From: Alphaproteobacteria bacterium
Lineage (GTDB): Bacteria > Pseudomonadota > Alphaproteobacteria > UBA9219
Direction: 5' to 3'
Length of the DNA stretch: 64,000 nucleotides
NCBI GenBank assembly: GCA_028690155.1
Contig: JAQVBU010000003.1
Span: forward strand, 24,438 to 88,437
Shown: positions 36,001 through 48,000 of the stretch, piece by piece
Layout of the letters: the number at the start of each line of letters is the position of its first letter
Position numbering within the stretch: the stretch's first letter is position 1
Made by a program: the position numbers

Positions 36001-39000
36001 CTCTGTTATCGAGCCCGAACCGACGCGCGACCATTCGGAAAACATGCTTCGCGCTTTTGGCGCTTCAATTCACATCGAGAAAAACGCTCTCGGCCAAGAC
36101 GTCATCGCGTTGACCGGAAGGCCTTCCCTTGCCGCGCAGAATATCGTTATTCCTGCCGATCCCAGCTCGGCCGCTTTTCCTTTGGTCGCCGCGCTTCTGG
36201 TCCCCGAAAGCCGCGTCACGCTAAGACACGTGGGACTGAATCCTCGACGCGCCGGCTTGATCGAGGTTCTTTTGGCCATGGGCGCCAAAATTGACATCGC
36301 CGACCAGCATCTCGAAGGCGGCGAGCCGGTAGCGGATTTAACGGTCGAATCGAGCGAACTCCACAGCCTTGACGTCCCCGCTAGCCAAGCCCCTCGCATG
36401 ATCGACGAATATCCTATCCTTGCCGTGGCGGCTGCCTGCGCCAAGGGACGGACCCATCTGCGCGGTCTTCATGAACTGCGCGTCAAGGAAAGCGACCGCT
36501 TGGATCTTATGGCGCGCGGACTGGCCCGCTGTGGCGCCGATGTTGTTGTCGAAGGCGACGACCTGATCGTCACCGGAACGGGGGCCCCTCCCCCAGGAGG
36601 GGTTTTGATTGATACGGCCATGGATCATCGCATCGCCATGAGCTTCCTTGTCCTTGGGCTTTGTGCCCCCCATCCGGTCGCGATCGACGACAGCCGGTTC
36701 ATCGCGACAAGCTTTCCCTCTTTCGTTTCCATGATGAACGCCTTAGGAGCCTCTATCGACACGCCTTCCTCTTGACCCGAGGCGCGTCTCTCGGCATCTT
36801 CTCATCCATGATCCAGCCTTCGCCCTCTCCTATCGATCACGCGGCCGTCCGTATTCTGGCGCAAGTCCTTTCTACGCTTTTACTCCTTCTGATCTTTGTT
36901 CCGGCACTTCTGTCGCTTGCCCTTTTTGCTGAAGGCCCCAACACGGAAGAAAAAACCTTTATCGTCGAACGCGGCTTGTCTGCCGTCACGATCGGTCGTC
37001 AACTCGAAAAACAAAACCTCGTGCTCAACGCGTCCCTTTTCCGCGTCGCCTCGCGGCTTGTCGGCTCCTTGAAAGCCGGCGAATACGCACTTCCTCCCAA
37101 GGCCAGCGCTTTTGCCATCGCCAAAATCTTAAACGAAGGCCACTCCGTCGTTCGCACCTTTACCGCCGTTGAGGGGCTTACCTCCGCCGATATCGTGGCG
37201 CTTCTCAATCAAGCCCCGGCGCTAACCGGATCTGTTGACTCCATTCCGGACGAAGGCTCTCTTTTGCCCGAAACCTATCGCTATACGTACGGCGATACCC
37301 GTGAAAGCGTTTTGGCGCGCATGCAGACGGCCCTGCAAGAAAAACTCGACGCTTTATGGTCCGAACGCGAGCAGGCCCTTCCTCTTAAAAGCTCCCATGA
37401 CGCCATCGTCTTAGCCTCGATCATTGAGAAAGAAACCGGCAAGGCCGAAGAACGCCCCCGCATTGCCGGCGTTTTTTACAATCGCTTGGAGCGGCCCATG
37501 CGGCTGCAATCCGATCCGACGGTTATCTACGCGTTGACGAAAGGGCTCAAGCCGCTTGATCGCGCCTTGACTCGTAAGGATCTAACCGTTCACTCCCCCT
37601 TTAATACCTATGTTCACGACGGGCTCCCCCCCGAACCTATTTGTAATCCTGGGGCGGCCTCGTTAAACGCCGCGCTGCATCCTGAACACCACACTTTTCT
37701 TTACTTTGTGGCGGATGGAAATGGCGGGCATACGTTTTCTTCGTCTCTGGCCGAGCACAACAAAAATGTGACGACTTGGCTGAAAGCCTTACGCCAGAAA
37801 GGAAAGGCACCGTAGTGTCCATTGCCTTGCGCCTTGCCGCCCTTCGTCCCAAACTTGGGCAGGCAACCTTGATTGCCGTAAGCAAAACACACCCTCTTGA
37901 ATCCGTCCGGGAAGCCCTGAACGCCGGGCAACGCGTTTTCGGCGAAAACCGCGTTCAGGAGGCGCTGAAAAAATTCGTCCCCCTTCGGCAGGATTTCGAC
38001 GATATCGAGCTGCACCTGATCGGCCCCCTCCAAACCAATAAAGCGCAAACAGCCGTTGAACTTTTCGATGTCATCCAAACGCTCGACAGGCCCGCGCTTG
38101 CCGAAGCTCTGGCCAAAGCCAGCGCTAAGTCTGGGAAACGCCCACGTCTTTATATCGAGGTCAACATAGGCCAAGAACCTCAGAAAGCGGGCGTTGGGCC
38201 TGACGAAACCGAAGCGTTTCTCTCGCTTTGCCGCAACACGTACGCCCTGTCCGTTTCAGGCTTGATGTGTATTCCCCCTTTAGGCAAGGAGCCTCGGTCT
38301 TATTTTGAGGCCTTGAAGGCCTTGGCCAACCATTTGGCTCTGTCCCATATCAGCATGGGAATGAGCGCCGATTTTGAAACGGCCATCGCCTGCGGCGCAA
38401 CCGAGGTTCGTTTAGGCACCGCCCTCTTTGGCCATCGATCGCCTCGCGCCTAAAATCCGCCGCCCGATTTGGACATCTGGCCGACAACGCTGAAAATCGA
38501 CATCATCGTCCAGCCAATCACGCCACCGACAAGCGCCATGCCGACGTTGCGAATCACGGCCGCTTGCGCCCGCATGGCCTCGACTTGATCTTGCATCCAT
38601 TCGTCAGCCACTTGTTCGATCACCACGCTGACATCCGAACGTTCCGCCAGAATTTCCAAGTCGATGGCCACCTCCGGCGAAGGAAAGTTCATCCGCGTTA
38701 ACCGCAACGATTCCCCAAGATTGTGGCCCGCCAAGACATTCTGACGCGTCGCCGCAATGCGTTCCCGCATCCACGGGTTGCCTTGCTCGCCCAAAATCTC
38801 GAGCGATTTCTTAAGCGGAACCTGCGCGCCCAAAAGGGCCGATAGCCCCATAAGAAAGCCGCTTCCCTGTAAAACACGATACCATGACCATGGGGGATAT
38901 TTGTCAAAACGCGATCGCAAAGAGCCGCGCCAAAACGAAAGGGTCGAGGTAATGACCACGGCAACGACGACGATGCCGAAAACGATCACAAGGCCCCATT

Positions 39001-45000: not shown

Positions 45001-48000
45001 GCGCTTCGGCCGCTTGTTTGTCGATCGTTTCGCGCATAACCTTTGTTTGCTCGCAACCCGCCAACCCAAAAAAAACGCCAACAAGAGAAAGGGTCAGCAC
45101 ACACCGACCAAAAGTACTCATGGCATGCCGTCCCTTTCCCAAAAACATCCTCTATCTCCATCAGTTTGAGTAACTATTCCCGCGCGCCTGAATAACCAAA
45201 ACCCGTTGATTCGCCCGGGCGTTGGCATGAAGCGACCCTACCGGCTGCGGACGAGCCGTATCAAACCCCGCAAGAAGTCCGCGAACCGCATCTTCAAACC
45301 GTCCTTTGAAGCGCGCCGAAGCCTCGACAGGATAATCGTACTCGGCCACCCATTTCAGCTCAACGCCCATACGCGAACACCAACGCATCAAAACCGAACG
45401 CAAGGTCTCTCCCCGTTCGGCGGTCCAATCGACCGTCGACGGACTTTCCGAAGAGCCGAGCCCGGCATTCTTCAGCCCCGGTTCGTTGACGGGAAGGGCC
45501 ATCGCCACTTCCTTTCTCTCGGGAACCTCCCTCATCGCAACCGGCACCGCCGGACGCGGCAACAGGCCTTTCTTCCCGACAAGAACAACTTCCCCTTGTT
45601 CCTTATACTCAAGCCCCACAGGCTCCAACATAACCGCAACCGTCTCGCGCCACGGGCTCCCCCCTTCGTAAGATACGAGCGTATTCATATCGACGTTTTG
45701 CTCGATCGAAAAGCTGTGGGTTGAGGGCAAAAGTTGACGCAAAGCAAGAGCCAAAGGCACGCTCGTCGCAAAACCGTGAACGACCTCCTCGGTCGTGGCG
45801 GCAGAAGAGAGAAAAGGTTGAGCCTTGCTGATCGTCTCCCCAGACGCGACCGCCCCCGCCGTAAAGGCCGGAGCCTCCAAAGGCGCCGAAGGATGGACTT
45901 CCGGCGCCGACGACGTCGTGGTCGGAAGGCTTGGCGACACAAGCGGCGAGACGGCCTGCGGTTTTTTAACCGCTGTTTTTCCTTTATAAACAGGCGAAGA
46001 TTTCGGCGCCGCATAGTCAACAGAATCGGAATCGACCCATTGGAAGCCGGCGTGCGCCAAGGAAGCCTGCCCTGCAAGGCCCCATATTAAAATCGCAGCG
46101 CAACAGGGAAGGGTAAAATTTTTATTCGGCATGTCGAGCGCCCTTTACCTTCATGAAAAGCGAACAGAGGTGATTCGCCGATATTATCTTGAGACAGCCC
46201 CCAGAGCAACACAGGAAATACATATAAAAAAGTGATTCCAAAAACAAAAATGACGAATCAATTTCTTTGTTTTGCGCCCTGAGAAGCAGCGAGCCCATGT
46301 CACTTTTTGCTTCCCTCACCCACAAGAACAGCATAAAAACTTTTATAGGAAAAATCGAAGAGACATAATCGCAACGGTTAGCAGAACAATGAGAAAACTT
46401 GGCGCATTTTTAGGGGTTGTTCTCCTTGTGGCGATTGCCACACCCCTTCTGGCGGCAACCGGCGCGGCAGAAGCCGAAAAAAAGGCTCCAGCCATTCTCC
46501 AGGCTCCGACAGCCACGCCCTTGGGAAAAACACTCGAACTTTTAGCCAAACCGCAAGCACCTCAGGCCGAGGAAGCGGATTCAGCGCCTGCCGAACAAGC
46601 GATCGAACCTTTATCAAAAAAAGTTCTCGACGCCCTTGGAAAAACGTCCGAAACGCTTAAGGCTAAGGGGCGTGAAGCCTCGCAAGCCTCTGTTTTTCAT
46701 GATTTTAATTCTTGGCTTACCCAGCAACATAAAAACAAAAAACGCCTCACTTTATGGCTCACGCTCGGAGAAAACGCCCTGATCGTTTTAATCCCGCCGA
46801 TCCTTATAGGGGCGGCCTGCGCGTTGTTCCTTTTTCCTGTGCATCGCAGGTTGGCACGAAAAACTCCAAAGACCGCTCTTTTTCGGTCGCTCCTCCTCGC
46901 CGGGCTGTTTTTTCTACGCCTTGTGCCCACACTGGTTTTCTTCGGCACAGCCCACCTTCTCTTGAACCAAAACGTTCCTCAAGACGTACCGCACGTCGTT
47001 TTGGCCTACGCCATCAACGTTCTGGCCTTGTTTTACGCCATTAAACAGGGATTACGAACCCTTCTTGTTCCCGTTTCCGGGTCCTTACGAGTCCTTCCCC
47101 TCGCCCCGGCGCGTATGCTCTCGGCTTACCGCTGGTTCGTCGCCTTCGTTTTCGTCGGAGCCATCGGGTATTTCGTCCTTATCGCCGCGGCACCGCTTCA
47201 GGTGCCCCCCAACGCCATAGGCCTTTTCAGAAACCTTCTAACGCTCCTCCTCGGCATCATGTCCGTTGCGGCTATTTTTAAAGCTCATCGCGTTGTGGCG
47301 ACATTTCTCCGCGGCGAACGGGTGCACGGGGCTGCGCCCGAATCCATTCCGGCCATGCGCGTTTGGCTTGCCAGGCACTGGCACCTTTTTGCCATCGCTT
47401 ATATCGTCGCCTGTCTTTCCGTCATCTTCTTCAATGAGGACTCGAGTCTTTTTCAAGTTCTTCGAGGAACGGTTTTAAGCCTTATCCTACTCATTGCCGC
47501 GCGTTTGGGTTTTCTGGTCATCGAGAAATGGAAAAGACCTCAACGGACCAAGCCTCCCTTACTTCATCGTCGTATCCTTGCTTTTTTTCTCCACCCCATG
47601 CTTTGGCTCTTCACCGGCATCGGTATCGCCCTCTCTTGGGGGTTCGACCTCTCTTTTCTCTTTTCATCCCAATCGGGACAACACGTTCTCAGCGCCGTGC
47701 TTTCAATCGTCGGAACCGTTTTTATCCTGACGCTTTTATATGAACTCATCCATCGGTCGATCGAACACCACCTGACCCGCACCGACCGGAAAAACCATAC
47801 GCCCCTCGCCTCGGCACGCGCCAGGACTCTCTTGCCTATGCTTCGCGCGTCAATCTTCATCCTTTTTGCAGCCATCGCCATCCTTTCGACTTTATCCTCG
47901 ATTGGCGTCGACATCGCTCCGCTTCTAGCCGGCGCCGGGATTATCGGCGTTGCCATCGGTTTCGGCTCTCAAACTTTGATCAAGGACTTTTTAACCGGCC

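Follow-up and report, generated by a model that had tools for sequence, protein, structure and literature searches.

In this study, we report a chromosomal cluster of six pil genes from a 64,000-nucleotide (nt) stretch of an alphaproteobacterial metagenome-assembled genome (MAG), positions 24,438 to 88,437 of contig JAQVBU010000003.1 in assembly GCA_028690155.1; the whole 64-kb stretch is referred to below as the window. The six genes are intact and very probably constitute, from the families of their products, the functional core of a type IVb pilus machine of the R64/IncI and PAPI class. Related parts lie dispersed elsewhere in the window, and in related genomes the cluster is joined to type IVB secretion genes and to PilS-type pilin genes. 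The explanation that we favour, and consider reasonably probable, is a working chromosomal type IVb core with its other parts dispersed, ancestrally coupled to type IVB secretion. As part of this explanation, the pil system would be an ancient trait of the chromosome, passed on vertically within a lineage of uncultivated Alphaproteobacteria to which MAGs labelled Micavibrio also belong. The 'orphan' look of the cluster appears to result from gene dispersal within an old chromosomal pilus and type IVB secretion system, the pilin genes and the partner Dot/Icm-type secretion genes being scattered and not lost.

The pil cluster and its relatives

Calling of open reading frames (ORFs) over the window placed six ORFs of the same direction, in the order L-N-O-P-Q-R, at 38450-46132 on the minus strand. 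Their features, in amino acids (aa), and a hairpin lying between two of them are as follows.

45161-46132, minus strand: pilL-like, 323 aa; exported; TcpQ domain at the C-terminus; likely secretin partner
43430-45148, minus strand: pilN-like, 572 aa; lipoprotein secretin, outer-membrane channel
42180-43430, minus strand: pilO-like, 416 aa; bitopic inner-membrane assembly protein
41492-42196, minus strand: pilP-like, 234 aa; match to TIGR03021
41426-41449, minus strand: GC-rich hairpin followed by a weak T tract, inside the gap between pilP and pilQ (41395-41491, 97 nt)
39541-41394, minus strand: pilQ-like, 617 aa; GspE-family extension ATPase; tetracysteine present, N-terminal extension of low complexity
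38450-39544, minus strand: pilR-like, 364 aa; GspF-family inner-membrane platform

Profile searches gave matches for all six products, in the families that an earlier note on this DNA had named for them. The PilL-like protein matched TcpQ (PF10671; 57.9 bits, E 1.1e-15). The PilN-like protein scored 268.9 bits (E 7.5e-80) against the PilN family TIGR02520, barely missing the NCBI equivalog cut-off of 287.65, and also matched the Secretin and Secretin_N_2 domains; its translation contains a lipobox, LAGC, the cysteine of which (Cys32) is invariant across 13 homologues, and a Ser/Gly-rich linker. PAP_PilO (PF06864) was matched by the PilO-like protein with 74 bits (residues 14-412 against profile positions 2-418 of 419), and the top plasmid matches of this protein, at 21-34% identity, carry the annotation 'type 4b pilus protein PilO2'. 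The PilP-like protein, with 38.5 bits against TIGR03021 (pilP_fam), exceeded the cut-off of 34.65, and the PilQ-like and PilR-like proteins matched T2SSE (173.8 bits) and T2SSF (90.1 bits, in two stretches), respectively. The lipoprotein secretin with its linker and the tetracysteine of the ATPase (CPHC...CSEC), both described in the earlier note, were read directly in the translations.

The co-directional arrangement with near-zero spacing given in that note was reproduced in its coordinates. Neighbouring ORFs overlap by 4, 17 and 1 nt and are otherwise separated by gaps of 97 nt and 12 nt, the latter having been stated as 13 nt. The 12-nt gap, between pilL and pilN, holds no ORF, and hence no pilM is present there. 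The only sizeable gap within the cluster is that of 97 nt between pilP and pilQ; its hairpin may be a partial terminator that splits the cluster into two transcription units, or an mRNA-stabilising element, and terminator-like sites in the region are not enriched (20 found, 17.7 expected from shuffled sequence).

The profiles, together with a comparison to the IncI plasmid pSE11-1, bore out the proposal of an R64/IncI-class set ordered L-N-O-P-Q-R. Of the features that characterise this class, the cluster has the PilN-family lipoprotein secretin, the TcpQ, PAP_PilO and PilP proteins in the order L-N-O-P, and a GspE ATPase with a GspF platform. A PilS-type prepilin encoded with the system was found neither within the window nor at the loci of the clade, and no PilU peptidase, PilV/Rci shufflon, PilM or PilT transglycosylase was found among the window ORFs scanned. 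The surroundings are core chromosome, and not a conjugative plasmid or integrative and conjugative element (ICE) that encodes a relaxase together with an I-type mating-pair system.

When a single genome was scanned for each species, 53 related loci were obtained, all from MAGs, two of which are labelled Micavibrio (loci L034 and L052). The cluster was present and intact in all 53 related species genomes recovered, ordered L-N-O-P-Q-R wherever the contig reaches, and the nearest secretins come from MAGs labelled Alphaproteobacteria, 'Bdellovibrionales' or Rhodospirillaceae. The type IVB genes dotD-dotC-dotB-icmT lie upstream of pilL, within 5 kb of pilN, in 27 of the 38 loci with enough upstream sequence; their products were recognised as DotD (PF16816), TraI/DotC (PF16932), a DotB/TraJ-like ATPase and IcmT/TraK (NF038220, 79.6 bits). 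At L034, genes for an SLT-domain protein, a DsbG-like protein, DotD, TraI/DotC (PF16932, 236.7 bits), the DotB/TraJ-like ATPase and IcmT/TraK are located upstream of pilL, and two prepilin genes downstream of pilR, with the cleavage sites G/MTLTE and G/FSLLE (cleavage at the slash).

One to five prepilin genes follow pilR in 26 of the 28 loci whose secretin is less than 49% identical to that of the window, and in none of the 12 loci in which this identity is at least 49% (5 kb downstream of pilR checked). The pilins of the relatives match both the PilS (PF08805) and the bundlin (PF05307, Bundlin) families and are therefore genuine type IVb pilins. Large prepilins of 427-476 aa, with the conserved N-terminus G/FTLIELVIVLGITGL..., are encoded after the small pilin genes at L024, L026, L028, L031, L036, L038, L039 and L054, and may be tip adhesins analogous to PilV. 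Two paralogues of about 460 aa and a 280-aa protein without a family match are encoded upstream of the pilus cluster at L034, L052, L067 and about 25 other loci.

By parsimony, we infer that the ancestral state was a single composite locus, in which the type IVB genes were followed by pilLNOPQR and these by PilS/bundlin-type pilin genes. On the same grounds, the pilin genes would have dispersed first, in the clade that includes the window, and the type IVB genes later, in the subclade of the window.

The motif and family scans agreed with the earlier note that no pilin, peptidase, adhesin or pilM gene is present at the cluster. A prepilin-motif scan of the 64 kb, in which the pilins of L034 and L052 were recovered as positive controls, gave one match only, on the strand opposite acpS, and this was judged spurious. 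The remaining window ORFs belong to housekeeping families (OmpA-family, CspA, ZapA, M23 peptidase, GpmI, UbiE, PheST, BipA, RNase J, MutS, ClpB, Ndk, PyrC and RlmN) or, for a few small ORFs, to no family; a pilin hidden in the window was accordingly rejected. Three Arg-rich ORFs without a family match at 212-1944 on the plus strand are likely antisense artefacts of a minus-strand gene that runs past the start of the window. Proteins identical to those of the window were found in that MAG, where the DotN homologue has the locus tag PHS57_02810, and otherwise only on short contigs of one sequencing run. When the pilins of the lineage were used in a profile search, no protein bearing the tag of the window MAG, PHS57, was among the 120 matches listed.

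A relative with an unlinked pilin was found in assembly GCA_965192775.1. Its contig CBCZUR010000010.1 (77,107 bp; locus L067), the secretin of which is 52% identical to that of the window, carries dotD-traI-traJ-icmT-pilLNOPQR, with genes for an acetyltransferase and nusB, and no pilin, after pilR. On the same contig, a PilS/bundlin prepilin is encoded at 4205-4855, between manC and marR and about 43 kb from pilL; its leader, ...SISG, is followed by FTLTEIAIVLG..., and its surroundings are housekeeping genes. The earlier note had left two alternatives, a pilin encoded elsewhere or a domesticated module. Because this relative has a PilS-type prepilin some 43 kb from a pilin-less cluster, the former is favoured, and by extension from it a pilin gene is likely to be present elsewhere in the genome of the window; nothing was found in support of a repurposed use.

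The same note had called the arrangement unusual and possibly undescribed for an alphaproteobacterium with a CtrA regulon. The module neither stands alone nor is a one-off case. The window also holds a second ATPase gene (50662-51678) and traQ/traR/dotN-like type IVB genes (59498-61684), which that note did not mention, and most relatives join pil to dot genes and prepilin genes. The cluster recurs throughout the related genomes recovered, and type IVb clusters are also found on alphaproteobacterial plasmids (Bosea, Rhizobium, Methylorubrum and Acetobacter).

The genes grpE, aroA, mltG and yggS flank the pil cluster on one side; its other flank carries an mscS-like gene and also ctrA (NF045991, 422.7 bits). 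A tRNA scan of the 64 kb identified only tRNA-Leu at 2969-3055 and none near the cluster, and a repeat search found no meaningful repeats flanking it. Among approximately 55 window ORFs scanned, there was no match to integrase, Peptidase_A24, recombinase or adhesin families, and the family scans placed no relaxase near the cluster. GC content is flat along the window, and the GC content, the GC content at third codon positions (GC3) and the codon usage of the pil genes are within the range spanned by 16 of the window's housekeeping genes. The arrangement ctrA-mscS / pilLNOPQR / yggS-mltG-aroA-grpE is common to eight related loci of the window's clade (L003, L004, L006, L007, L009, L010, L045 and L051), in full or as far as covered, and at these loci synonymous sites are saturated relative to the window.

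Ratios of non-synonymous to synonymous substitution (dN/dS) in the window's clade, which are rough values given that dS is saturated, were 0.04-0.09 for PilQ, 0.09-0.14 for PilR, 0.12-0.16 for PilN, 0.14-0.18 for PilO, 0.14-0.27 for PilL and 0.23-0.38 for PilP; the neighbours aroA, yggS and grpE gave 0.09-0.19. Across this clade PilQ is 81-87% identical, which exceeds most neighbouring genes. The identity of PilL in relatives is 30-57%, and that of PilP, the lowest of the six, is 29-45%.

A recent island was rejected as the origin of the cluster, because its GC, GC3 and codon usage are those of core genes, no tRNA, integrase or repeat lies nearby and synteny is conserved. It was likewise rejected as a pseudogenised remnant, because all six ORFs are intact and their dN/dS values are like those of the housekeeping neighbours. 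The description in the earlier note of a chromosomal module that is set among core genes and has no neighbouring integrase, tRNA or repeat boundary thus withstood the scans, and the comparisons of composition and synteny for which it had called pointed the same way, to genes that are like the housekeeping genes in composition and are not a recently acquired ICE. Adjoining grpE at 32922-34562 on the minus strand are genes for a DUF711 protein (645 bits) and an ACT-domain protein (PRK00194 family), a pair that is kept in the synteny of the relatives.

Dispersed pilus and secretion genes and CtrA-box motifs

The related features located away from the cluster are the following.

50662-51678, minus strand: second, PilT-like ATPase, 338 aa, between rlmN and pyrC, about 11 kb from pilR with core genes between
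60707-61684, minus strand: traQ-like (IcmC/DotE-type) membrane protein, 325 aa; match to NF033883
60170-60556, minus strand: small membrane protein in the traR/IcmD position, 128 aa; paralogue of the traQ-like protein
59498-60151, minus strand: dotN/icmJ homologue, type IVB coupling-complex subunit, 217 aa
51778-51792, no strand assigned: CtrA-box motif, about 100 nt upstream of the second ATPase gene, inside the 3' end of pyrC
61744-61758, no strand assigned: CtrA-box motif, 60-74 nt upstream of the traQ-like gene
56490-56504, no strand assigned: CtrA-box motif TTAAATATCTTTTAA, 24-38 nt upstream of a fliL-like gene (55984-56466, minus strand)

Aligned over its full length, the second ATPase shares 34% identity (E 6e-40) with the ATPase encoded directly after pilR in the type IVb cluster of the Bosea plasmid pANAM02, a level equal to that between the two PilQ proteins (33%), and 32% identity, also over its full length, with the equivalent gene product of a Salmonella Macclesfield plasmid. 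Against the PilT family TIGR01420 it scored 115.6 bits, far under the cut-off of 319.1. Its dN/dS is 0.06-0.08. Identification as DotB/TraJ was rejected, since the match to the Micavibrio DotB-like protein was partial and of 28% identity, as against 34% over the full length for the ATPase following pilR. Clusters of the 'PilO2-type' subclass include a gene for a PilT-like ATPase with a length of about 320-340 aa, and the gene at 50662-51678 provides one, unlinked to the cluster. These similarities suggest that it is probably a relocated ATPase of this pilus system, with a role in retraction or an auxiliary one. The gene is single in the window, and two tandem paralogues are located between pyrC and rlmN in the closest relatives, L006 (4353-6349), L007, L010 and L045; these are about 46% and about 78% identical to the window's protein. 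Its best plasmid match (37.8%) is an isolated extra copy at 682066-683022 of Bosea pANAM02 (L063), far from the type IVb cluster of that plasmid; unlinked copies of this ATPase therefore exist elsewhere too.

The three type IVB genes comprise a DotN/IcmJ component, a TraQ/IcmC-type component and a TraR/IcmD-type component of Dot/Icm-IncI systems. The traQ-like protein matched NF033883 (conj_TraQ_IncI1) with E 1.5e-9 and 38 bits (cut-off 80), matched DUF6750 weakly and is 34% identical to the product of the same-position gene in a full Dot/Icm-like operon (L058). The 128-aa protein had no family match of its own in the profile search, and was identified by position and similarity: it matches the 325-aa traQ-like protein with E 1e-12, and is 62% identical to the product of the gene before dotN in L060 and 36% identical to its counterpart in L058. 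The DotN homologue matched the Legionella DotN structures 5x42 and 5x1h (E 1.8e-17) and scored 70.7 bits against NF038221 (cut-off 100); the source annotations of related MAGs give its homologues the name DotN or IcmJ. The order of the trio matches traQ-traR-(traS)-traT of pSE11-1, and the gene order icmC-icmD-icmJ of Legionella is the same.

In L058, on an 890-kb contig, the trio is part of a full operon encoding two DotI proteins, DotH, DotG, ..., DotN, a 997-aa protein of the size of DotO, DotM and a DotL-like coupling protein. Glycosyltransferase genes and a gene for a Wzy-like O-antigen polymerase are located directly after this operon (18672-20723). Core dot/icm genes are present in the related genomes of L034, L058 and L067. 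The closest relative has dotN and the small gene by themselves amid housekeeping genes, and this isolated dotN, together with the trio in the window, indicates that the type IVB system of the subclade is also scattered.

Seven marine Micavibrionales have been listed as having a secretion system of the Dot/Icm type that lacks a relaxase (pT4SSi), in an analysis from which pili were left out (PMC9418006). According to the genome paper of Micavibrio aeruginosavorus ARL-13, that strain showed no evidence of type IV secretion systems (PMC3189940); the genomes that carry dotD/dotC/dotB/icmT beside the pilus cluster are MAGs labelled Micavibrio and not strain ARL-13. As far as the expression study of ARL-13 was available, the pili genes highlighted in it (GMV_902/903 and GMV_1530) sit in loci other than the pil cluster.

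Perfect TTAA-N7-TTAA motifs occur three times in the window, against 0.67 expected, and at least three occurred in 4 of 100 shuffles. A flagellar gene that belongs to a CtrA regulon would be expected to have such a box, as the fliL-like gene does. The box before the second ATPase is also present in L006, L007, L010 and L045, a conservation that the coding constraint of pyrC could explain. Boxes with differing spacers were found 80-110 nt upstream of the traQ- or traR-like genes in L058 and L060, and the unlinked pilin gene about 43 kb from the pil cluster in a relative (L065) is preceded, at a distance of 59 nt, by a perfect box. An enrichment of boxes at genes of the system, for which a first binomial test had given 3e-8, was abandoned, as its significance was gone under a per-gene control (18 of 512 system genes and 10 of 388 others; Fisher p = 0.27). 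CtrA may control the second ATPase, the traQ operon and the pilin of the relative, a prediction from motifs that is offered as a lead and not as a result.

Elsewhere in the window, a 6S RNA (Rfam RF00013, 61 bits) was identified at 6361-6516 on the minus strand, between zapA (6529-6900) and a 5-formyltetrahydrofolate cyclo-ligase homologue (5679-6248), an arrangement that is the classic zapA-ssrS-ygfA order.

Interpretation and rival explanations

In the mechanism proposed for a working, dispersed type IVb pilus, PilQ and PilR would polymerise pilins encoded elsewhere, and the fibre would be pushed out through PilN with PilL as its partner, PilO and PilP acting as the inner-membrane and periplasmic assembly proteins. 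The second ATPase would retract the fibre. The pilus would make and tighten contact between cells so that the type IVB system could deliver cargo into a target cell, possibly bacterial prey, as the lineage counts epibiotic predators among its members, and some components (the second ATPase, the traQ operon and the pilin of the relative) would be under CtrA control. IncI thin pili stabilise mating pairs for the I-type conjugation system, and by analogy the present-day pilus may be coupled to the type IVB system, a suggestion that is made tentatively and to which we give slightly less than an even chance.

Several observations weigh against this explanation. The scores against TIGR02520, NF038221, NF033883 and TIGR01420 are under the curated cut-offs, the proteins being divergent, and the dN/dS values are subject to the saturation mentioned above. 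For this genome, neither a pilin nor a prepilin peptidase was found in the 64 kb scanned. In the window's clade, pil no longer adjoins type IVB genes, so that the coupling is argued from ancestral linkage and the IncI precedent, and predation is assumed only from kinship to Micavibrio-labelled MAGs. With regard to CtrA, there is no box upstream of pilL in the window, the box of the second ATPase falls within the coding sequence of pyrC, and the per-gene control gave no significant excess.

That the pil genes of the clade lie apart from all type IVB genes and yet are strongly constrained would also fit a pilus which, with its pilins encoded elsewhere, serves adhesion, surface motility or DNA uptake by itself, the adjacency to type IVB genes being a leftover of a plasmid or ICE without any present link. 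The PilT-like second ATPase suggests a retractile pilus that could serve motility or uptake, and in the stretches shown no I-type secretion genes adjoin the type IVb clusters of Bosea pANAM02 and the Salmonella Macclesfield plasmid, which are typed non-mobilizable and MPF_F, respectively. We nevertheless regard a pilus acting alone as rather unlikely, since the dotD-dotC-dotB-icmT genes have remained adjacent in 27 of 38 evaluable loci over deep divergence, beyond what neutral linkage would lead one to expect, and the thin pilus of IncI plasmids is functionally tied to the I-type system. It is a highly improbable alternative that the secretin, ATPase and platform now serve, after domestication, as an envelope device, for protein export or otherwise, that polymerises no pilin. 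Such a device would account for the lack of prepilin genes within 5 kb downstream of pilR in 12 of 12 clade genomes and in the 64-kb window; however, sister genomes have one to five adjacent PilS-type prepilins, one member of the clade with pilin-less loci has a PilS-type prepilin 43 kb away, and PilO and PilP, which position pilus assembly, are kept under constraint. In addition, we know of no type IV filament machine that functions without pilins or pseudopilins.

An integrated part of a plasmid or ICE, newly arrived or decaying, would explain both a gene order equal to that of IncI plasmids and ICE pil modules and the missing pilin, peptidase and adhesin genes, as a remnant might show. The probability of such an origin is close to negligible in view of the core-like composition and codon usage, the lack of an integrase, tRNA or att-like repeat nearby, the identical insertion context in related loci with saturated synonymous sites, and the six intact ORFs with dN/dS like that of housekeeping genes; moreover, the closest plasmid homologues are only 22-33% identical.

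The working, dispersed pilus with an ancestral coupling to type IVB secretion is hence retained as the preferred explanation. On this explanation, the pairing of thin pilus and I-type secretion known from IncI plasmids would have been fixed in the chromosome of a whole lineage, inherited and then split into constrained pieces. Locus-based detectors will score such scattered systems as incomplete. The pil and dot genes are, moreover, concrete candidates for how Micavibrio-type predators attach to and feed on prey. A bolder and quite doubtful proposal is an epibiotic attack apparatus of Micavibrio-like bacteria, in which a retractile PilS-type pilus would capture a bacterial prey cell and pull it in, the type IVB system would inject effectors and CtrA would time both to the motile attack phase. 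If true, this would be the first type IVB system aimed at bacteria, as against eukaryotic hosts or conjugation recipients, and the first role in predation for an IncI-like thin pilus.

Comparison with known pilus and secretion systems

The IncI1 (R64-type) thin pilus of pSE11-1 shares with the window cluster the core proteins PilL, N, O, P, Q and R in the same order, the lipoprotein secretin and the TcpQ-domain PilL. Identities to the pSE11-1 proteins are 26% for PilN, 30% for PilQ, 27% for PilR, 24% for PilO and 22% for PilL, and in pairwise comparison its PilP has no detectable similarity to the PilP-like protein of the window. The order on pSE11-1 is pilI...pilL-M-N-O-P-Q-R-S-T-U-V, then traF-K and then traL-Y. 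As on IncI plasmids, the cluster of the relatives is beside I-type traH/I/J/K genes, in a permuted order in which traHIJK are upstream of pil and not downstream. Unlike pSE11-1, the window locus lacks pilI/J/K, pilM, pilS, pilT (transglycosylase), pilU (peptidase) and pilV with its shufflon, and the locus of the lineage as a whole is without pilM, pilU and pilV/shufflon; in relatives, an SLT-domain gene is found upstream of pil, and in some loci the large 427-476-aa prepilins are encoded downstream. The window cluster also differs in its chromosomal position and vertical inheritance, neither a relaxase nor an integrase being in view, and in the presence in the window of a PilT-like second ATPase, which pSE11-1 does not have.

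The best plasmid matches to the window pil genes are 'PilO2-type' clusters, those of Bosea sp. ANAM02 pANAM02 and the Salmonella Macclesfield plasmid. Identities to the pANAM02 proteins are 31% for PilN, 33% for PilQ, 31% for PilR, 25% for PilO and 24% for PilL. The order on these plasmids is TcpQ protein, secretin, PilO2, PilP-like protein, ATPase, platform and small second ATPase, and the window core is alike; the second ATPase and prepilin genes are contiguous there, whereas in the window the ATPase is about 11 kb away and no pilin gene occurs in the 64 kb. This class of pilus also has chromosomal copies, in the order L-N-O-P-Q-R, in PAPI-1/pKLC102 (pilL2-pilM2), Salmonella SPI-7 and Yersinia YAPI, which are recognisable mobile islands with an integrase, tRNA/att sites and their own pilin, peptidase and adhesin genes. 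In contrast to these islands, the window cluster has no such genes nearby; it is fully ameliorated and set among core genes.

As in Caulobacter, where CtrA activates pilA of the Tad/Cpa pilus, a CtrA box precedes the major pilin gene in a relative, and boxes are also found before the second ATPase and the traQ operon; the Caulobacter pilus is of the Tad/IVc class and the one described here of class IVb, with a regulation that is predicted from motifs and not statistically established. In the literature searched, the coverage of which was incomplete, no account was found of a linked IncI-type pilus cluster or of its dispersal.

With the Dot/Icm system of Legionella and Coxiella, the lineage shares DotN, encoded in the window, and homologues of DotD, DotC, DotB and IcmT. 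The order DotI-DotH-DotG-...-DotN-DotO-DotM-DotL in L058 mirrors icmL-K-E-G-C-D-J-B. The genes are chromosomal and dispersed as in the Legionellales, so that the scattering of the pilus and secretion genes of this lineage has a parallel in Dot/Icm. The differences are that the lineage is alphaproteobacterial, and that its type IVB genes are joined to an IncI-like thin-pilus cluster, which the Dot/Icm loci of Legionella lack.

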